Virus record (IMG/VR): IMGVR_UViG_3300032006_002703
Location: 1-64,000 of that record
DNA from: a virus
Length of the DNA stretch: 64,000 bases
Strand: one strand, 5' to 3'
The notes beneath the pieces were generated by a model. That model was not told where the DNA came from. It ran no database searches and worked only from the letters and a program-made list of their open reading frames with translations. The position numbers and the translations under genes were made by a program. Positions within the stretch are counted from its first letter, which is position 1. Each line of letters starts with the position of its first letter. Shown here piece after piece: positions 1-8,077 of the stretch.

Positions 1-243
1 ATTTTTAAGGTTTTTTGCACGAAAAAAATCTCCCGAAGTCCTTGAGCTTCAGTGGTTTCCGCAGAAAAAAAAGTCGAGAATGACTTTTGGGGCGTTTTTG
101 CTCCGCTCTACATGAAAAAAACTTTATTTTTTTTCTCCTTGAGCATCAACGACTTAGGTCGCTAGAAGATAGTCGCAAAAGATTTTGCTTGCGATTTCCT
201 CATTTTCTGTCATACTATACTTATAACAATCGAGAAAGACCTT
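1..243 (+). repeat. Diverged ~240-bp direct repeat, copy 1 (may extend left of the window)
   Basis: Aligns by eye with 2614-2857: ATTTTTAAGGTTTTTTGCACGAAAAAAATC...GAAAAAAAGTCGAGAAT...TTTTTGCTCCGC...GATTTTGCTTGCGATTT...GAGAAAGACCTTT. Confidence 0.9.
189..216 (+). promoter_or_regulatory. Putative sigma70-type early promoter (TTGCGA-16-CATACT, TG extension)
   Basis: Same architecture as the promoter at 2802-2829 in the second repeat copy. Confidence 0.55.
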
Positions 244-251
244 TAGAAATT

Positions 252-536
252 ATGTCAAACTTAGTAAACATTCCAGAGTCCATCAAGGACATTAAAAACG
301 CCATCGCTCGCAGAATGACCATTCTTGCAGAGTGGAACGCTATGCTTGCAAAAACTCGTTGCAAGGTTCGTCGCCATACTCGCCAGTTGCAAGCCGATGC
401 AACTAAAGCACAGATTACCTTGTTGCGTGAGGCTCTCGCTAGTGCTGAAAAGCAAGCTGAAATCAACAAAGCAAAACAATTTGTTGCCAGTCTCGCAAGT
501 GTCCGAAAAGACTGGGAAAATGGTCTTTTTGACTGA
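252..536 (+). CDS. Hypothetical early protein, helical/coiled-coil (94 aa)
   Basis: Start moved from TTG 87, which lies inside the repeat/promoter, to ATG 252 (MSNLVNIPES). Confidence 0.7.
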   Translation: MSNLVNIPESIKDIKNAIARRMTILAEWNAMLAKTRCKVRRHTRQLQADATKAQITLLREALASAEKQAEINKAKQFVASLASVRKDWENGLFD

Positions 537-545
537 AAAAAAACC

Positions 546-574
546 TTGACAAAAACCACTTTATTTGCTAGAAT
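546..574 (+). promoter_or_regulatory. sigma70 promoter TTGACA-17-TAGAAT, leaderless
   Basis: ATG 582 follows the -10 box after 7 nt. Confidence 0.85.
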
Positions 575-581
575 TATTATT

Positions 582-1049
582 ATGATTAAGATTGAAAAAC
601 TATTCACCACTTTAGAAAACCTCTTGAAGTCTCACGATTGGACTTTCGACTTCAGCGATGACCACAGCGTTTGGACTCGTGGAAATGAAGAACGAGAACG
701 CTTGCGTTCGCTTGCTCTCGCATTAGGCGAACATGATGCAGAACGAGTTTCTAATCTTTGGAACGCTTTTTGTCCCGATGGGTTTGAGCGTTCAACTGAA
801 AGTTTCGAGCCTAAAAAGCCAGAAGTTAAATGGCGTTTGCGTGAAGGCGTAAAGCCAAACCGCAGATTTCGATTTGCAGACATTAACAAAATTCGCCGTG
901 AGTTGGGCGATGAAAACCTTGAGACTGCAGAAAGTCGCAAGGAAGCAGTCTTTCGCCTAACATGGGGAGTTGAGCCTAACGAGCTTGAAAAGGAAATTGG
1001 TTTCATTTTCCATATGCCTTCGCATCCCGATTTGTGCGAGATTGCTTAA
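582..1049 (+). CDS. Hypothetical phage early protein with HDWxFxxSDD motif
   Basis: Starts MIKIEK at the predicted TSS; LKSHDWTFDFSDDHSVWTRG resembles a motif common in small phage proteins. Confidence 0.8.
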   Translation: MIKIEKLFTTLENLLKSHDWTFDFSDDHSVWTRGNEERERLRSLALALGEHDAERVSNLWNAFCPDGFERSTESFEPKKPEVKWRLREGVKPNRRFRFADINKIRRELGDENLETAESRKEAVFRLTWGVEPNELEKEIGFIFHMPSHPDLCEIA

Positions 1050-1050
1050 A

Positions 1051-1116
1051 ATGATTTTTTTGATTGCAACGGGTTTTTTTATTGGCGTAATGTTAGAACT
1101 AACAAAGGAAAACTGA
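1051..1116 (+). CDS. Small hydrophobic peptide MIFLIATGFFIGVMLELTKEN
   Basis: Starts 1 nt after the upstream stop; TGATG coupling to the next ORF. Confidence 0.5.
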   Translation: MIFLIATGFFIGVMLELTKEN

Positions 1117-1232
1117 TGAACATATATGATTGTCTTATTCTCTTACCAATGGCAGTAGCTACTGGAGTCTATTATTGGGATTTATTCACTTGGAAAAGTG
1201 ACCTTTTCGAGCCTGTAGAAACAGACTCGTAA
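1116..1232 (+). CDS. Small membrane peptide (38 aa, MNIYDCLILLPMAVATGVYYWDLF...)
   Basis: Translationally coupled; its TAA stop is the first 3 nt of the palindromic site at 1230. Confidence 0.55.
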   Translation: MNIYDCLILLPMAVATGVYYWDLFTWKSDLFEPVETDS

Positions 1233-1304
1233 CCCTTTGGGCAACAAGGCTTTAGGGCGGCGCCCTGGCTTGCGACGCGTAAACCCTTGCGTTTCAAGGA
1301 CTTG
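1230..1304. repeat. 75-bp bipartite element 1 (25-bp palindrome + 25-bp GC-rich spacer + 25-bp palindrome)
   Basis: TAACCCTTTG-GGCAA-CAAGGCTTTA / GGGCGGCGCCCTGGCTTGCGACGCG / TAAACCCTTG-CGTTT-CAAGGACTTG. Confidence 0.85.
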
Positions 1305-1408
1305 CGACTAAAGTTAATTTTATTTGATTTTTTTGAAGTTTTTTTCGCGTGTTTCCATTAAGCTTTGGGCGCCAGCAAGATGCGACGCAAACTTTTTTCA
1401 ACTTTTAC

Positions 1409-1437
1409 TTGACAAAGGGGTAAAGGTGTGTTATATT
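1409..1437 (+). promoter_or_regulatory. sigma70 promoter TTGACA-17-TATATT
   Basis: Near-consensus; this transcript has a leader with TAAGGT upstream of ATG 1474. Confidence 0.8.
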
Positions 1438-1473
1438 GTATCTAGAAAGTCAAGTTAAGGTAAGGTAAAAATT

Positions 1474-1614
1474 ATGAACGAAATCAGAAAAGAAATCTCT
1501 ATCCTTCGGGAAACCCTTGAGGACTGTGTCCTCACCATCGCCGAAAAGGTTGCGATTCGCAACCAAATCGGTCAACTGCAAGACGAGCTTGCCCGCTTGT
1601 CCCATGAGGACTAA
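1474..1614 (+). CDS. Small coiled-coil protein (46 aa, MNEIRKEISILRETLEDC...)
   Basis: Not in the ORF track; follows a promoter and SD-like TAAGGT. Confidence 0.65.
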   Translation: MNEIRKEISILRETLEDCVLTIAEKVAIRNQIGQLQDELARLSHED

Positions 1615-1618
1615 ACCA

Positions 1619-1735
1619 ATGCAACCAAAAATCCGCAGTAAGGTTTTATTCACTAAATCCCGCCCACACAAGCGGAAAAACAAAGTCCTTGACCGCAAGC
1701 GAAAGCACAAGAGAAAAGTGCAAGAAATTAATTGA
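1619..1735 (+). CDS. Small basic peptide (38 aa) with FTKSRPHK...RKxKHK, ArfA-like tail
   Basis: MQPKIRSKVLFTKSRPHKRKNKVLDRKRKHKRKVQEIN; paralogue at 3332-3439. Confidence 0.7.
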   Translation: MQPKIRSKVLFTKSRPHKRKNKVLDRKRKHKRKVQEIN

Positions 1736-1744
1736 AAGTTTTTC

Positions 1745-1773
1745 TTGACAAAACCAACTTTTTCCGTTATATT
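1745..1773 (+). promoter_or_regulatory. sigma70 promoter TTGACA-17-TATATT, leaderless
   Basis: ATG 1780 follows the -10 box after 6 nt. Confidence 0.85.
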
Positions 1774-1779
1774 GTTACT

Positions 1780-2052
1780 ATGATTAAGATTAAAAAAGAC
1801 TTCTGGACTCAGCAAGATGTCCCCATGATTCACTTTCGACAAGCTCGCATTGAGGTCACGCTTGCCAATGGCGAGCAGTTCGGCACGATTAAGACCTTGC
1901 CATTTCAAGACGATGCACCGACTAAAGCTCAATGGCTTGAAAGCGTGCAAAACCAGTTTGGCGAAGTTGCCGACATTACCTTCACCGATTGGGGCGTCCA
2001 ATCTGCCAAAGCTCCAAAGGGACACCCTGCATGGAGGTCGCTCGATGTTTAA
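1780..2052 (+). CDS. Hypothetical early protein (90 aa)
   Basis: MIKIKK start at the predicted TSS. Confidence 0.75.
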   Translation: MIKIKKDFWTQQDVPMIHFRQARIEVTLANGEQFGTIKTLPFQDDAPTKAQWLESVQNQFGEVADITFTDWGVQSAKAPKGHPAWRSLDV

Positions 2053-2299
2053 GCAATTTCTTTTTCAAACTCTTTTGCGTTGCAAGTATCATGTGGGATT
2101 TTCCCACAAGAGGCATTGGCTCAGAAAGTATTTTTGGCGTTTAGAATCCGCTCGCAAGTTTGCGGAACAAACGGCATTGACTTCTGTCGGTGGTGCGTCA
2201 ATCGTTTGGCGTAAGGACTTCAAGCCAATGTTTACGGCTCGCCCTCTCGTTAACTACTCAATCCACGAAGACGCAAAAAACTTTTCGACAAACATATAA
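2045..2299 (+). CDS. Hypothetical basic protein (84 aa)
   Basis: ATG 2045 preceded by GGAGG; overlaps the upstream stop. Confidence 0.6.
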   Translation: MFKQFLFQTLLRCKYHVGFSHKRHWLRKYFWRLESARKFAEQTALTSVGGASIVWRKDFKPMFTARPLVNYSIHEDAKNFSTNI

Positions 2300-2301
2300 C
2301 C

Positions 2302-2538
2302 ATGAAAACATTATCCGATTCTCTCAACTGCATGGCATTCACAGCTTGCTTTTATTTAACGCTCGCCTCTTTTGGGCTTTTCCTTATGGGCTTATGGTCA
2401 TGGATTCAGCTTGCAACAGGCTTCCCAACTTCCGCAACTGGCTTGCAAGTTTTTGCTGTGCTTTTGGTCGGTGGGCTTTTTACTTTGCTCGGCACAATCG
2501 GATTGGGCAAGATTTGGGACGCATTACTTAATCGCTAA
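2302..2538 (+). CDS. Small two-TM membrane protein
   Basis: Two hydrophobic stretches; its TAA stop is the first 3 nt of the site at 2536. Confidence 0.7.
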   Translation: MKTLSDSLNCMAFTACFYLTLASFGLFLMGLWSWIQLATGFPTSATGLQVFAVLLVGGLFTLLGTIGLGKIWDALLNR

Positions 2539-2610
2539 ACCTTTGGTGTTCAAGGGTTTAAGGCTTGGCCTTGGCCCGCGGCGCGCAAACCTTTGGTAGT
2601 CAAGAGGTTA
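2536..2610. repeat. 75-bp bipartite element 2
   Basis: TAAACCTTTG-GTGTT-CAAGGGTTTA / AGGCTTGGCCTTGGCCCGCGGCGCG / CAAACCTTTG-GTAGT-CAAGAGGTTA. Confidence 0.9.
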
Positions 2611-2613
2611 CGT

Positions 2614-2857
2614 ATTTTTAAGGTTTTTTGCACGAAAAAAATCTTTGGAAGTCTTTGATTACCAATGATTTCGGCCAGAAAAAAAGTCGAGAATTGGTTT
2701 TTGGGCATTTTTGCTCCGCACGAAGTGATTTTTTTTTACTTTTTTTTCTCTTTGATTATCAGTAGTTTACGCATCTGAGAGCTAATCGAATACGATTTTG
2801 CTTGCGATTTTCTGAGATTCTGTCATTATAGGGTTATGAAAATTGAGAAAGACCTTT
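2614..2857 (+). repeat. Diverged ~240-bp direct repeat, copy 2
   Basis: Matches 1-243; contains two degenerate 25-bp sites (2648-2672, 2745-2769), a promoter (2802-2829) and the first codons of the 2836 ORF. Confidence 0.9.
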
Positions 2858-3141
2858 CACACATCGCCAACGCAGTCGCATTGGCTAACGCTAGCAACAA
2901 CGCAGTTGCTCCACAATTCGCTGACTTGCTCGCTTCCTTGCAAGAGGAAAAGCTCGCTGAGGAGTTTACTCTTGAGCATGGCACTCAACACGCCTCGAAA
3001 GAGGACATCGAACAAGAGTTCGTTTCTCTTGACGCAGTCGAGTCCGACAAGGACGACATTGACGAAAACGATGAGGAGCAAGTCGATATGGATTGCGTAA
3101 GCGGTTCATTCGCTGACCTTTTCGACACTATCGAAAGCTAA
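2836..3141 (+). CDS. Highly acidic hypothetical protein (101 aa)
   Basis: Leaderless MKIEKD start 6 nt after CATTAT; D/E-rich C-terminal half. Confidence 0.8.
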   Translation: MKIEKDLSHIANAVALANASNNAVAPQFADLLASLQEEKLAEEFTLEHGTQHASKEDIEQEFVSLDAVESDKDDIDENDEEQVDMDCVSGSFADLFDTIES

Positions 3142-3173
3142 CATTTTAACCTAAAACTATAACCAAAACAATT

Positions 3174-3323
3174 ATGTTCATACTACAATCAATTCCTTTT
3201 GCCTCAAAATCCGACTGGGTCACAGAATCCATTCCCTTGCTCCGCAAGCAAGCCGAAGCCTTGCTGAAGGCTCGCATTGCTAACGCCACAGGGAAACGCA
3301 GGTTTCGCCTGACAAAGGTGTAA
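3174..3323 (+). CDS. Small hypothetical protein (49 aa, MFILQSIPFASKSDW...)
   Basis: Not in the ORF track; fills the gap between co-oriented genes. Confidence 0.55.
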   Translation: MFILQSIPFASKSDWVTESIPLLRKQAEALLKARIANATGKRRFRLTKV

Positions 3324-3331
3324 GAGTCACC

Positions 3332-3439
3332 ATGCCAAAGGTAAAGGTCAGAGTTCCTTTCGTATTCACGAAGTCACGCCCTCACAAGTCGAAGGTTAAG
3401 TATAACCGCAAACCCAAACATAAGAAAGACTTATCATAA
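3332..3439 (+). CDS. Small basic peptide (35 aa), ArfA-like YxRKxKH tail
   Basis: MPKVKVRVPFVFTKSRPHKSKVKYNRKPKHKKDLS; shares FTKSRPHK with 1619-1735. Confidence 0.7.
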   Translation: MPKVKVRVPFVFTKSRPHKSKVKYNRKPKHKKDLS

Positions 3440-3513
3440 TGATTGAATTGATTTGTGCAATTGGATTTCCTTTCGTACTGCTCGCTGTGGTAGTATGGTG
3501 CTGGCCATCCTAA
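3439..3513 (+). CDS. Single-TM peptide (24 aa, MIELICAIGFPFVLLAVVVWCWPS)
   Basis: TAATG coupling; its stop is the first 3 nt of the site at 3511. Confidence 0.5.
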   Translation: MIELICAIGFPFVLLAVVVWCWPS

Positions 3514-3585
3514 CCTACTGAGTATCAAGGGTTTAGGGCCTGGCAGCCAGGGCTGGTATGTAAACCCTTGGTATACAGTACCTTA
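3511..3585. repeat. 75-bp bipartite element 3
   Basis: TAACCTACTG-AGTAT-CAAGGGTTTA / GGGCCTGGCAGCCAGGGCTGGTATG / TAAACCCTTG-GTATA-CAGTACCTTA. Confidence 0.85.
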
Positions 3586-3635
3586 GGGTAGTAGTATAGG
3601 ACAAGAAGATAGTTGTATATTCTTGCCCATATGGC

Positions 3636-3664
3636 TTGACAAGAGGCTAGTTCTATGCTATATT
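3636..3664 (+). promoter_or_regulatory. sigma70 promoter TTGACA-17-TATATT
   Basis: Near-consensus with TG extension; very short leader before ATG 3678. Confidence 0.8.
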
Positions 3665-3677
3665 ATAGTATATTAAG

Positions 3678-4019
3678 ATGATGAATGTGACAGGAGATTT
3701 CGTATTTAAGCCAACGCCACTGACCCGTGCTCAAGCCTGTGCAGCTAAGCGTATGTGGGCACGCTGGCAAGCTCATACTACTGGCAACACTTATGTGCTT
3801 TATGTGCAGAACAGAACAAGCAAGCACGCCTTTAGGGTAATGGGTCACGGCAAGAATCCATCGCAAGCGGTTAGGCGTTACTATAAGGGGATTGACAACC
3901 GAGGCAATTGGATATGGCAATGCACAAAGGTGGTTGCAGTATACTCTTGCGTATGCGACAAGTCCACACAGGCAGGTGACTTGCTAGTTGGACAAGCTCA
4001 AGACAGAGCACCATGGTGA
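3678..4019 (+). CDS. Hypothetical early protein (113 aa)
   Basis: ORF directly after the promoter. Confidence 0.7.
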   Translation: MMNVTGDFVFKPTPLTRAQACAAKRMWARWQAHTTGNTYVLYVQNRTSKHAFRVMGHGKNPSQAVRRYYKGIDNRGNWIWQCTKVVAVYSCVCDKSTQAGDLLVGQAQDRAPW

Positions 4020-4027
4020 GAAAAGAC

Positions 4028-4056
4028 TTGACAAGTTTAACTTTATTCTATATTAT
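4028..4056 (+). promoter_or_regulatory. sigma70 promoter TTGACA-17-TATTAT, leaderless
   Basis: ATG 4064 follows the -10 box after 7 nt. Confidence 0.8.
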
Positions 4057-4063
4057 TATGCTT

Positions 4064-4255
4064 ATGATTAAACAAGAGATAGAAAGACTCGTTTCGCTTT
4101 TGCAAGCGATGACATTGCAACGCACGACTGCCATCCGTGAGGGTAGGCTTTCCGAAGCCGAACAGATTCGCTCTGTGCAAGAGGACATTGACCACAAGAT
4201 TCAAGAGTTGACTTGCCTCGCACAGGTTGAGGTTGGCATTCGTCAAAGGGGATAA
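4064..4255 (+). CDS. Small helical-hairpin protein (63 aa)
   Basis: MIKQEIERL start at the predicted TSS. Confidence 0.7.
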   Translation: MIKQEIERLVSLLQAMTLQRTTAIREGRLSEAEQIRSVQEDIDHKIQELTCLAQVEVGIRQRG

Positions 4256-4256
4256 G

Positions 4257-4367
4257 ATGAGAGAGTATAGAAATCTAATTCTTTGCGGCATCTTATATAC
4301 TGCATTCGCTGGGCTAATGGTTGGTTGCTTTTATTTGGGTTGCCTGTTGAGCGTCGTAACCAATTAA
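4257..4367 (+). CDS. Single-TM peptide (36 aa, MREYRNLILCGILYTAFAGLMVGCFYLGCLL...)
   Basis: Starts 1 nt after the upstream stop; ends inside the site at 4357. Confidence 0.55.
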   Translation: MREYRNLILCGILYTAFAGLMVGCFYLGCLLSVVTN

Positions 4368-4431
4368 GCCTCAAGGGTTTACGAGCGGGGCCTGGCGGGG
4401 CACCCTTAAACCATTGATCACCAAGGGTTTA
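4357..4431. repeat. 75-bp bipartite element 4
   Basis: TAACCAATTA-AGCCT-CAAGGGTTTA / CGAGCGGGGCCTGGCGGGGCACCCT / TAAACCATTG-ATCAC-CAAGGGTTTA. Confidence 0.85.
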
Positions 4432-4436
4432 GGTGC

Positions 4437-4613
4437 TCACTGGATGAGCTTGCGGAGACCACGAGAGTCTCCCCAATCACCGAGAACGAGATGGAGAATT
4501 TGGGAGCTACCCCAACGACGGACTTCCGCCAACTCTCCGCACTGGAGCACAGAGAGAACAACAAACAGACCATCCCAACGGTCAAGAACGATATCACCTT
4601 TTTCGATTTTCAT
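4437..4613 (-). CDS. Small beta-rich (SH3/KOW-like) protein, 58 aa
   Basis: Not in the ORF track; MKIEKGDIVLDRWDGLFVV; leaderless behind TTGACA(4648-4643)-17-TATTCT. Confidence 0.7.
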   Translation of the reverse strand: MKIEKGDIVLDRWDGLFVVLSVLQCGELAEVRRWGSSQILHLVLGDWGDSRGLRKLIQ

Positions 4614-4656
4614 AATTGAAGAATATATTATTTAGAGTTAAATGTCAAGAACTTTT

Positions 4657-4836
4657 TTAAGAAAAAAATGGGTGGAGCTTAACTTGCCACGGCATGAAAG
4701 CAAAACGCTTTTGTGAGCGATACAAACGGCAAAGGATTTGCTTACCGAGTCGGTCAGTCCTATAATCTGCATCGACAACTTGAAAAATGCGACCACTGCG
4801 GTCTACTACTACATCGTTATTTTTTATCTTAATCAT
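4657..4836 (-). CDS. Small beta-rich (SH3/KOW-like) protein, 59 aa
   Basis: Not in the ORF track; MIKIKNNDVVVDRSGRIFQVV; leaderless behind TTTACA-17-TATTGT. Confidence 0.7.
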   Translation of the reverse strand: MIKIKNNDVVVDRSGRIFQVVDADYRTDRLGKQILCRLYRSQKRFAFMPWQVKLHPFFS

Positions 4837-4911
4837 ACCTATACAATAGCAAAAAAAGACCCTTTTGTAAAGCCTAAAATTCTACTATTTTTTTGGATTA
4901 TTCTACTGCAC

Positions 4912-4936
4912 TAACTCATTGATTGGCAGGGGGTTA
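4912..4936. repeat. Single 25-bp palindromic site closing the early region
   Basis: TAACTCATTG-ATTGG-CAGGGGGTTA fits the TAAACCYTTG-N5-CAAGGGTTTA consensus. Confidence 0.7.
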
Positions 4937-6674: not shown

Positions 6675-7160
6675 ATGACAAATAAAAATAAAGCTCCTGG
6701 CGGCTTGGCCAGTTCAATGCTCCCTGCGTTTTCCAGGGATGAATTCCTCACTCCCTTCGACTCATTTTTTGATAATGTAGTCGGACAACTATACCCCTCT
6801 TTTGGTAGAGAAGTTGGAGTTGAGTTTTTTGGTAACAACTCTTACCCTAAAGTAGATGTTATTGATCACGATGATAAAATCACCATCGAGGCAGAAATTC
6901 CTGGACTCAGTAAAGATGAGGTTTCTGTTGATTTGGAAGAAAACGTTATCACTGTGTCTGGCTTGAAACATAGTCACACCGAAGATACTAGTACTCGATA
7001 TATCCGTAGAGAACTAAAGCGTTCAGCTTTCAAGCGCTCATTTAAATTGGGAGAAAACCTAAACCTGAAAAAGGTAAAGGCGGATTTTCAGAACGGGGTT
7101 TTACTGATTAGTGTTCCAAAAACGGCGCCTGCAAAACCTAAAAAGGTTAAAATTCTTTAA
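6675..7160 (+). CDS. Small heat-shock protein, Hsp20/alpha-crystallin
   Basis: YPKVDV, AEIPGL, F.RSF.L, ADFQNGVLLISVPK motifs. Confidence 0.95.
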   Translation: MTNKNKAPGGLASSMLPAFSRDEFLTPFDSFFDNVVGQLYPSFGREVGVEFFGNNSYPKVDVIDHDDKITIEAEIPGLSKDEVSVDLEENVITVSGLKHSHTEDTSTRYIRRELKRSAFKRSFKLGENLNLKKVKADFQNGVLLISVPKTAPAKPKKVKIL

Positions 7161-7191: not shown

Positions 7192-7283
<92 letters not shown>

Positions 7284-7284
7284 T

Positions 7285-7372
<88 letters not shown>

Positions 7373-8077
7373 TTAGCGGTCCCCAATTTTCTTAATGATA
7401 AATTTAAGGAGTTCGGATCGCAAGATATCCTGCTCTTTGAATTGAAAGCTTTCTATGCCATTATGGCGACTATCTTCGTCGTCAAAAAGTTTACACATGT
7501 CAAAAAATCCACTTTTCCCATTAATATCGCTTTGCATAGAGTCTCCGCAAACAAAAAGCTTTGAGTTTTCTCCTAGGCGGGTTATTAGTGTGGTTAATTC
7601 TTTGAATGTAAAATTCTGAGCTTCATCTGCAACGACTATTTTATTTTTCCAATCCGCGCCTCTTATAAAATTAATGGGCATCGCTTTGATTCTTCCCTCT
7701 TCCATTAATTCTTTTTTAATTGTTGTGTTTTGAGGCAACATTTCCCAAAGCTTATCTTCCAGTGGGGCCATATAAGGGTTAAATTTTTCATCTAAATCTC
7801 CAGGCAATGCCCCTAGTCCTTTTTCCGCGCTTTCGATAACCGTTCTAACATAAAGCAGGTCTAGTTCGTTATACGCACTTAGCAACCTTAAGGCAGAATA
7901 TACTGCCATATATGTTTTTGTGGATCCCGCTGGCCCATTGATAAATATAAGTTTTACTTTATGGTCTAAAGCCTTGGATAGGAAGAGCTTCTGATTCTCC
8001 GTTAGTTTTTTAGAGTGAATCGGAATGCTCTGCTTGAGCTGTGGAATCTCAATTTTTTTCGGCTTTTTCGCGGGCAC
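7373..8077 (-). CDS. phoH: PhoH-family ATPase
   Basis: GPAGSTKT, LGALPGD, FIRG, DEAQN, LITRLGE, GDxxQSD. Confidence 0.93.
   Translation of the reverse strand: MPAKKPKKIEIPQLKQSIPIHSKKLTENQKLFLSKALDHKVKLIFINGPAGSTKTYMAVYSALRLLSAYNELDLLYVRTVIESAEKGLGALPGDLDEKFNPYMAPLEDKLWEMLPQNTTIKKELMEEGRIKAMPINFIRGADWKNKIVVADEAQNFTFKELTTLITRLGENSKLFVCGDSMQSDINGKSGFFDMCKLFDDEDSRHNGIESFQFKEQDILRSELLKFIIKKIGDR

Follow-up and report, generated by a model that had tools for sequence, protein, structure and literature searches.

The early region of an uncultured phage, known from a 107-kb record that is 76% complete, carries a composite repeat of strict geometry between its small genes, and the question raised by this locus is whether such a unit acts as a folded strand, as a recombination site or as a platform for protein on double-stranded DNA. 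The repeat was pointed out in an earlier note on the window, by which we mean the whole stretch analysed here (64,000 nucleotides, positions 1 to 64,000 of the record). Its description of the anatomy is correct. Each of the four elements is composed of two 25-bp sites (A and B) around a 25-bp core, 75 bp in total (Table 1), the start-to-start spacing of the sites is exactly 50 bp in four out of four, and the cores are GC-rich (72–84% compared with about 42–45% locally) with CCTGGC or CTTGGC in each. The consensus given in that note, with up to three mismatches, has nine matches where 0.01 would be expected, a number not equaled in any of 100 shuffles. A looser motif consisting of the family's constant positions only, with up to two mismatches, has 14 matches (2.2 expected), 11 of which, among them single sites at 132-156, 2648-2672 and 4912-4936, fall within the first 5 kb. 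It was also noticed that copies are missing beyond the early region, and this holds for the 107-kb record, the rest of which has matches at chance level only; apart from a single match with three mismatches at 87169, it contains no further copy. The sites had been called imperfect palindromes, and here the constant positions are indeed dyad-symmetric but the variable positions do not pair.

Table 1. Elements, single sites and promoters of the early region, in positions of the window.
Feature	Position	Strand	Description
Single site	132..156	+	canonical right half of family; 32 nt upstream of -35 hexamer 189-194
E1	1230..1304	+	site A 1230-1254, GC core 1255-1279, site B 1280-1304
Sigma-70-type early promoter	1409..1437	+	11/12 consensus positions; 104 nt downstream of E1
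E2	2536..2610	+	sites 2536-2560, 2586-2610
Single degenerate site	2648..2672	+	in second copy of 240-bp block; weaker paralogue at 35-59
E3	3511..3585	+	sites 3511-3535, 3561-3585
Sigma-70-type early promoter	3636..3664	+	11/12 consensus positions; 50 nt downstream of E3
E4	4357..4431	+	sites 4357-4381, 4407-4431
Minus-strand early promoter	4843..4871	-	-35 4871-4866, -10 4848-4843; leaderless gene 4836-4657
Single site	4912..4936	-	40 nt upstream of -35 hexamer 4871-4866; serves minus strand

The elements are found at the ends of genes. The first TAA of E1 is the stop codon of ORF 1116-1232, and those of E2 and E3 are the stop codons of a 78-aa membrane ORF (2302-2538) and a 24-aa hydrophobic ORF (3439-3513), respectively. 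E4 lies between converging cassettes, with plus-strand ORF 4227-4367 terminating within site A (its stop codon is 8 nt into the element) and minus-strand ORF 4613-4437 ending 5 nt from site B. A 240-bp repeated block begins 3 nt after E2, and because positions 1-244 repeat 2614-2857 the record probably begins just after another copy of the element, like the repeat copy at 2614. Single degenerate sites had been listed in addition to the four elements; those at 132-156, 2648-2672 and 4912-4936 hold, while the pair at 35-59 and 2745-2769, which exceed two mismatches, are weaker. The site at 2745-2769 is a weaker paralogue of 132-156 that has kept the 32-nt linker, and a C-rich stretch lies on the far side of 4912-4936. 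Near-consensus sigma-70 promoters accompany E1, E3 and the half-sites at 132 and 4912, the one with its -35 hexamer at 189-194 having been read by eye. There is no plus-strand promoter after E4 and the early promoters at 546, 1745 and 4028 have no element, hence the element is not simply a promoter part.

The element is widespread and not private to this phage. Other contigs of uncultured phages yielded 186 distinct bipartite copies, among which the two sites are spaced at 53 bp (116 copies), 52 bp (30), 50 bp (11) or 48 bp (11). Spacing is fixed inside each lineage, at 48, 50 or 52–53 bp, but the range of 48–53 bp between lineages is half a helical turn and a same-face arrangement of the two sites is therefore not universal. 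The positions that are constant throughout the family (1-3, 6, 8-9, 17-18, 20 and 23-25) read TAA-N4-TTG-N5-CAA-N4-TTA, and the GC-rich cores are lineage-specific. The order of gene end, element, phased linker and promoter is kept across very diverged phages, although the surrounding sequence is not conserved. No match was returned when the element and its promoter were compared with 50,697 phage records by blastn, and a literature search for a description of such elements found nothing, in agreement with the earlier statement that it could not be matched to a named element. The terminase of the analyzed phage is only ~25% identical to that of any cultured phage, with best matches to Bacillus and Clostridium phages and not to T4-type phages.

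One possible explanation is that the element works as RNA or single-stranded DNA, its palindromes and GC core providing a terminator, a 3'-end stabilizer or a processing hairpin. Of 82 copies, 16 share the TAA of the upstream ORF and a further 17 lie 2–3 nt beyond the end of that ORF, a separate canonical terminator lies upstream in only 11 of 85 copies, sites are often situated between converging genes, and many cores could form a short GC hairpin. The whole-length fold of E3 is also strong (-41.5 kcal/mol, z -4.4), however, E3 is the sole window element to fold better than shuffles, with z of -0.5 to -0.8 for E1, E2 and E4. Single-copy folds, RNAalifold and two explicit structures were used to examine folding, and no conserved fold exists: not one consensus pair is returned by RNAalifold for 67 diverse copies, a local-hairpin model gives 71.2% paired cells compared with 74.0% in shuffles (variable positions pair less often, that is, there is anti-covariation within sites), and at site B 62% of copies have C.C as pair 7-19. 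Mutual information is just 0.06–0.2 bits. The sole remnant of a hairpin or cruciform, which we rejected, is a weak whole-dyad signal about the core (63 vs. 51 cells changed on both sides, with 3 of 500 shuffles reaching 63). No Rfam family reaches its gathering score in the window, no tRNA is found at the elements, and the copies in planctomycete chromosomes described below are not covered by any RNA family. An intrinsic terminator was likewise rejected, as no terminator-like site lies at any of E1–E4 and no T-run follows them, and in a relative (L212) separate canonical terminators precede five of eight elements. A register with the DNA helix, such as that described below, is not expected from an RNA element. 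Function as RNA or single-stranded DNA is in our judgment very improbable; the foldable attC-like or REP-like structure offered in the earlier note is not supported, and the RNA-processing role that it listed is unlikely.

Known classes of repeat with which the element may be compared differ from it in other respects as well. Integron attC sites are folded single strands with an R' sequence GTTRRRY, recognized by the IntI integrase and associated with promoterless cassettes; we rejected this class given the lack of a conserved fold, the absence of a PF00589 match from the 107-kb record and the presence of promoters in the cassettes themselves. REP/BIME sequences are imperfect folding palindromes of 20–40 nt with a conserved 5' GTAG and a cognate RAYT (Y1 transposase), and were rejected on the basis of anti-covariation within the sites, no conserved GTAG in the aligned copies and no PF01797 match in the 76%-complete record. 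A mini-CRISPR array or solitary repeat was also rejected, as the paired sites differ and the "spacers" share GC-rich composition and lineage-specific motifs.

The distances from element to -35 hexamer cluster at 19–20, 30–31, 41–42, 51–53 and 61–62 nt. The periodicity of these linkers (R 0.63–0.65 at 10.5–11 bp, n = 61 after de-duplication) is not matched by any of 5000 permutations, although, with related sequences and phased A-tracts as its source, it should not be counted as fully independent evidence. The linkers of the window (32, 32, 40, 50 and 104 nt) match the phase of the family to within 1.5 nt. A promoter is present on one side only, within 200 bp, in 87 of the 186 copies. The location at gene ends, together with the helical steps to a promoter across phased A-tracts, leads us to read the element as boundary and promoter-upstream architecture. 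Dyad symmetry without covariation, rigid geometry in each lineage and the helical register with promoters also support the earlier proposal of paired sites, about five turns apart, for a putative dimeric protein. A T7-like or phage-sigma promoter, prompted by a shared ACGACT hexamer and neighboring sigma-like genes, was rejected, as the direction of the downstream gene cannot be foretold from how a site is oriented, the conserved blocks are just 13 nt apart, and host-type promoters follow the elements anyway.

Cassette recombination had also been proposed, and comparison of relatives supports occasional events (one inverted cassette, core flips) but only a weak excess of breakpoints. In L212 the cassette with the homologue of window ORF 3678-4019 is inverted and is bounded there by elements, and two ~300-bp repeats are near-identical except for a 23-bp core that is exactly reverse-complemented. 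Two minus-strand early cassettes lie between E4 and the half-element at 4912 in the window, and the left and right 5-mers of the cores are re-assorted among copies. Such observations would be consistent with recombination as the primary role, the elements being sites for excision, insertion and inversion of early cassettes in the manner of promoter-early stem-loops (PeSLs) or attC. However, homology breakpoints between related arrays show just a 1.6-fold enrichment within 15–100 bp of an element and a depletion inside it, the 76%-complete record yielded no tyrosine recombinase, serine recombinase or Y1 transposase, the cassettes have their own promoters, and the helical register would go unexplained. 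We consider a primary role in recombination very improbable. Recombination looks like a side effect: because short direct and inverted homology links every copy to the others, the elements may now and then also supply the breakpoints at which cassettes are inverted or duplicated and cores flipped.

As for the protein that may bind, the constant positions of the site equal a mirrored IHF core, CAA-N4-TTR, in which a TT step and an AA step are separated by 9 bp. IHF kinks DNA at TT and AT steps 8 bp apart, with a TTR element 6 bp from a kink (PMC5829579). The phage site, with TT at 8-9, AA at 17-18 and TTA at 23-25, has the spacing of two kinkable steps and a TTR expected of an IHF site. Compared with the IHF core WATCAANNNNTTR, both halves contain CAA-N4-TTR, and positions 17-18 and 23-25 are near-invariant. 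The H' site of lambda attP, which has this core and was read from NC_001416, is in the same register, fits the phage motif at 11 of 14 constrained positions, and has in common with it CAA-N4-TTR, a TTG-N5-CAA centre and flexible steps at a distance of 9 bp. Unlike lambda H', the phage element has the core in both halves, as would suit a homodimer, and its sites are paired at a fixed spacing around a GC core. The "WAT" of the 13-bp IHF consensus is also not conserved (at site B there is a W in 71%, an A in 58% and a T in only 13%), which counts against an IHF-like binder. The N4 of the half-site is conserved and far from free (mostly R-Y-C-C), giving the sites more information than classical IHF sites and pointing to a more specific reader than IHF. 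A phage-encoded HU/IHF protein was rejected as the binder, as no PF00216 gene was found in the analyzed record or those of five relatives. Planctomycete genomes carry 2–4 PF00216 genes each, which score 70–92 bits on IHF models compared with 35–51 bits on HU models.

A more specific reader could be a dedicated regulator, phage-encoded or delivered with the virion, for which the element would be the operator: a dimer would occupy each site, a tetramer would bridge the pair, and early promoters would be switched off (or on) together. The 9–10 informative positions per half-site, N4 included, are typical of a specific reader, the rigid spacing and distinct cores of each lineage fit such a system, and the arrays of the 53-bp clade are adjoined by two genes, weakly sigma-like, that diverge from them in 33 loci. 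These genes are, however, not found in the analyzed 107-kb record, no DNA-binding Pfam domain occurs among the scanned early proteins of the window, and no protein of at least 60 aa other than PhoH is common to the arrays. Additionally, the distance to the promoter is variable and large, unlike that of a classical repressor operator, and the same site stands beside ordinary genes in bacterial chromosomes. A dedicated regulator is possible in our view, if rather doubtful.

These bacterial copies lend support to the earlier guess of a PVC host, as planctomycete chromosomes contain the site in excess. In one Planctomycetia genome it is matched 56 times and the reversed control 0 times, and for sixty other genomes of the same order taken together the counts are 18 and 2; the excess comes mostly from the one genome, where copies are in dispersed repeats and could be selfish DNA or phage-derived. 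In one such repeat the site is followed by a 33-nt linker and a sigma-70-type promoter in 11 of 11 copies. No common gene lies downstream of the host sites, with flanking genes differing from locus to locus. A selfish or neutral dispersed repeat (REP-, BIME- or MITE-like), common to planctomycete hosts and phages and without dedicated function, would account for the two repeat families of that genome that carry the site beside unrelated genes, for copy numbers that are very different among genomes of one order, and for the extragenic location at gene ends. Placement is, however, strictly conserved across very diverged phages and the geometry is rigid, no transposase was found in the 107-kb record, and the terminal sequences are without the covariation seen in MITE or REP stems; we see little chance that the element is such a repeat.

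Overall, we favor a double-stranded DNA module that serves as an architectural boundary and as promoter-upstream DNA, with a host IHF-like protein as the predicted binder, a reading that we regard as evenly poised between right and wrong; the identity of the binder and the insulating or activating role are what we infer. Each element would be a platform for protein on double-stranded DNA, not a folded strand, in which a dimer of the IHF/HU family, most likely the IHF-like protein of the host, bends each site sharply and a stiff GC core is held between the two bends. The element lies where one early transcription unit ends, in steps of the helical repeat ahead of the following sigma-70-type promoter. 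There it may separate neighboring, strongly transcribed early units by means of a roadblock or topological barrier, and may offer upstream DNA to the RNA polymerase of the promoter that follows. It is conceivable, but unlikely, that the element is the cis part of an undescribed host-phage architectural system in which a planctomycete IHF-like homodimer makes the two bends and a phage protein reads the lineage-specific GC core. Transcription-driven genome entry, or the switch from early to middle expression, would then be governed by a topological barrier or relay station at every early unit, and core flips would be programmed inversions and not replication accidents.

Parts of this architecture have precedents. 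Upstream IHF sites and curved DNA stimulate phage promoters such as lambda pL, Mu Pe and the early promoters of SPO1. As with the element, strong early promoters are preceded there by phased A-tracts and an architectural site, and the face of the helix matters, as it is predicted to do here; but those are single sites at individual promoters, whereas the element is a conserved double-dyad boundary unit repeated through the early region. PeSL cassettes belong to T4-type phages and have a simple terminator hairpin, G(n)-loop-C(n), as their upstream part (PMC2839356, PMC4122927). Like the element, PeSLs are repeated composite motifs between small early genes, where they close one unit and immediately precede a near-consensus sigma-70-type early promoter. 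They are also associated with cassette rearrangement, indels and replacements between close relatives ending at the motif and mini-circles being formed, an association that the element may share. The element differs in being a 73–78-bp double dyad with a GC core and no conserved fold, in its conservation of primary sequence across a large non-T4 clade, and in its fixed geometry and helical register to the promoter; PeSLs occur in the hyperplastic regions of T4-type myoviruses, and the analyzed phage is not T4-type by its terminase. The RIP/RIB (BIME-1) repeats of enterobacterial chromosomes are two inverted REPs around an IHF site, for which proposed roles include termination, topological insulation and binding of architectural proteins (PMC3333891). 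Like the element, these repeats lie outside genes where transcription units end, and are composites of IHF-type sites and GC-rich palindromic DNA. The arrangement is reversed in the phage element, where two IHF-type sites flank a GC core, and, unlike RIP/RIB, it has no GTAG, REP-type stem covariation or RAYT gene and is located in a phage early region and not in a chromosome.

To our knowledge, early gene expression in large uncultured phages is almost unknown, and the Planctomycetota have no phage model system. The element is a strongly conserved and geometrically rigid non-coding unit on well over a hundred phage contigs, and its site recurs in the chromosomes of probable hosts. It supplies a short DNA site that could serve as bait for the protein that binds it, early promoters are predicted to depend on the face of the helix, and the element may be of use for locating the early region of metagenomic phage contigs and for assigning them to a host phylum. 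If it is true that a host IHF-like protein binds it, the element would provide the first candidate recognition sequence for such a protein outside Proteobacteria.

The four 75-bp elements of the early region (E1-E4), in which a 25-bp site A and a 25-bp site B flank a GC-rich core, are present at exactly the coordinates claimed for them in the earlier note, with the two sites 50 bp apart in each (Table). The consensus proposed there is matched nine times in the window against 0.01 expected. A motif built only from the constant positions of the wider family gives 14 matches against 2.2 expected, of which 11 lie within the first 5 kb and include the previously reported single sites at 132, 2648 and 4912, and a scan of the record beyond the window (43 kb), as the earlier note had proposed, returned one weak match. 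The source record is linear, 107,410 bp long and 76% complete, with the window forming its first 64 kb, and it encodes a large terminase, ribonucleotide reductase, a Clp-type ATPase and PhoH. No cultured close relative of this phage was found, its terminase being ~25% identical to those of Bacillus and Clostridium phages.

Positions 1-4900 form an early-type region of tiny ORFs, none of which matched Pfam, behind near-consensus sigma-70-type promoters. The elements begin where genes end: the first TAA of E1, E2 and E3 is the stop codon of upstream ORFs ending at 1232, 2538 and 3513, respectively, and a fourth upstream ORF terminates 8 nt into E4. Positions 2614-2857 are repeated at 1-244, and a fifth element copy therefore probably lay immediately before the first base of the record. 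Minus-strand block 4437-4870 consists of two early-type cassettes, each with a promoter of its own and a leaderless start (M-K-I-E-K and M-I-K-I-K). They are oriented against the rest of the array and look like an inverted block.

Features of the window and of related loci (positions refer to the window unless a locus is named)
Feature	Position or locus	Strand	Remark
Elements E1, E2, E3, E4	1230-1304, 2536-2610, 3511-3585, 4357-4431		75 bp each
Small hydrophobic ORFs	1116-1232, 2302-2538, 3439-3513, 4227-4367		precede the elements
Near-consensus sigma-70-type promoters	546, 1409, 1745, 3636, 4028	+	early region
Near-consensus sigma-70-type promoters	4648, 4871	-	early region
Leaderless cassettes	4836-4657, 4613-4437	-	two genes converging on E4
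Hsp20-family gene	6675-7160		3' of early region
Two tRNA-Ser genes	7192-7372		3' of early region
PhoH gene	7373-8077	-	after early region
Weakly sigma-like gene pair	L315:4249-5668	-	also 32 other loci, e.g., L237, L311, L313, L319
Dispersed repeat 1, Planctomycetia genome G006	L472-L481, L507, L511, L514, L515, L517, L519, L521
Dispersed repeat 2, Planctomycetia genome G006	L485-L489, L494-L497, L499, L501, L503, L505

Pattern scans of viral contigs, with the loci fetched, yielded at least 186 distinct bipartite copies, the arrays being located near contig ends. Site spacing is constant inside a lineage and differs from lineage to lineage (53 bp in 116 copies, 52 in 30, 50 in 11 and 48 in 11), and the GC core is likewise lineage-specific: CCTGGC or CTTGGC in the window, a perfect 13-bp palindrome in the group of the related contig L212, and mostly a G-rich block in the clade with 53-bp spacing. 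The layout in 87 orientable copies runs from a gene end through site A, core and site B to an AT-rich linker with phased A-tracts and then a sigma-70-type promoter. In 16 of 82 cases the upstream ORF takes its stop codon from the first TAA of the element, in 17 more this ORF ends 2-3 nt before the element, and hydrophobic micropeptides account for about one third of the abutting ORFs in relatives. Our literature search found no published description of such elements; the closest known systems are the PeSL cassettes (promoter-early stem-loop) of T4-type phages and the enterobacterial RIP/BIME-1 composite repeats. In the 53-bp clade, the commonest neighbor of the array is a pair of adjacent genes whose products (~170-210 and ~270 aa) weakly resemble sigma-70 region 2, below threshold; the pair is transcribed away from the array and was not found in the window's phage record. 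Early promoters of this clade (e.g., L316, L306, L334) also conserve a CCGATA or ACGATA block between -35 and -10, which the window's own early promoters lack.

The element and its promoter lie in helical register. Distances from the element end to the -35 hexamer cluster at 19-20, 30-31, 41-42, 51-53 and 61-62 nt, with a vector strength of 0.63-0.65 at a period of 10.5-11 bp (n = 61, similar linkers removed) that none of 5000 random sets equaled, although this is not a clean probability since the sequences are related and the linkers contain phased A-tracts. All linkers of the window (E1, 104 nt; E3, 50; sites 132 and 2745, 32; site 4912, 40 on the minus strand) fall within 1.5 nt of the family's phase. 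With its linker in phase, site 4912 is thus the predicted half-element of the two minus-strand leaderless cassettes.

The anatomy of the 25-bp site resembles that of an IHF-type protein site on duplex DNA. Its constant positions (1-3, 6, 8-9, 17-18, 20 and 23-25, with the constancy of 2, 3, 23 and 24 imposed by the search filter) spell TAA-N4-TTG-N5-CAA-N4-TTA, in which the IHF core CAA-N4-TTR occurs twice, once in each orientation. The lambda H' site (L471:153-177 of the lambda record) shares the register of the phage motif and agrees at 11 of 14 constrained positions. IHF kinks the H' DNA of its complex at TT and AT steps 8 bp apart, the nearer of the two kinks lying 6 bp from the TTR element (PMC5829579); kinks and TTR map to positions 8-9, 17-19 and 23-25 of the phage site.

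The earlier note had also considered a foldable ssDNA or RNA structure, and E3 alone does fold better than shuffled sequences; E1, E2 and E4 fold no better on either strand. RNAalifold predicted no pair across 67 diverse copies. When two local hairpins were imposed, 71.2% of cells were paired against 74.0% in shuffles, every shuffle at least equaling the real alignment, so within a site one half tends to diverge from the other. At variable positions 4, 5, 7 and 10, no more than 10-45% of copies have a base that can pair with its partner, and at pair 7-19 of site B 62% have C.C. The dyad spanning the whole element gives only a weak pairing signal, which could be explained by occasional copying between the arms. 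In L212, five elements are preceded at 30-100 nt by a canonical hairpin-plus-T-run terminator, and such terminators also precede 11 of the 85 copies that were oriented elsewhere; the element is therefore distinct from the terminator. Rfam and tRNA searches gave no match to the elements. The element is most probably not a folded strand.

A role in cassette recombination was another of the earlier proposals. The homolog of ORF 3678-4019 in L212 lies on the opposite strand between two elements, with the orientation of the adjacent homolog unchanged. Within L212, the ~300-bp repeats at 2740-3140 and 3710-4110 are near-identical but for the 23-bp GC core, which in one is the exact reverse complement of that in the other; these repeats span terminator, element and downstream DNA, with the core flipped between the inner half-sites. 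The flip recurs in a second contig, L213 (782 and 1752), and the 53-bp clade contains both core orientations (47 copies G-rich on top, 15 C-rich). Against such a role, comparison of related arrays shows no more than a ~1.6-fold enrichment of homology breakpoints near elements, and no recombinase or transposase gene was found in the 76%-complete record. In our reading, the inversions and flips arose from short inverted homology, by template switching or by ordinary recombination, and are not the element's purpose. PhoH is common to the window and L212, with the L212 array on the other side of the gene.

The site also occurs in planctomycete chromosomes. A one-genome-per-species prokaryote scan gave many single matches, near a rough chance estimate of ~70, with Planctomycetota making up about a quarter of the matches listed. 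At up to two mismatches, one Planctomycetia MAG has 56 matches and Botrimarina eight, against none for the reversed pattern in either; 60 further genomes of that MAG's order total 18 against two in the control. Sites of the site-rich Planctomycetia genome (G006) fall within two dispersed repeat families beside unrelated genes. The first (at least 12 copies, its two inverted sites 90 bp apart) has the same order in 11 of 11 copies, namely an inverted site and, after 65 bp containing A-tracts, a second site, followed at exactly 33 nt by a TTGACA-N17-TATAAT promoter. This promoter drives a conserved stretch that lacks a conserved reading frame and matches no Rfam family. The second (at least 14 copies) has one site and then a ~60-nt conserved stretch with a TGCACC...GGTGCA stem-loop. 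Some sites of G006 come immediately after tRNA genes. More generally, several bacterial genomes (L370, L449, L385, L409, L498, L504) have the 25-bp site directly behind a tRNA gene's 3' end, in some cases as the loop of a terminator hairpin.

No gene for an HU/IHF-family protein was found in the window's phage record or in those of five relatives. Planctomycetes of this set encode two to four such proteins each, with IHF-like examples at L529, L525 and L527. Of five tested, four scored 70-92 bits with models of IHF alpha and beta and 35-51 bits with those of HU; none of these scores reached the equivalog cut-off. The phage site differs from the classical IHF site in that it does not keep the WAT portion of the consensus and that N4 is conserved, mostly as R-Y-C-C, which suggests that the putative binder may be an IHF-family protein with added specificity, or some other protein.
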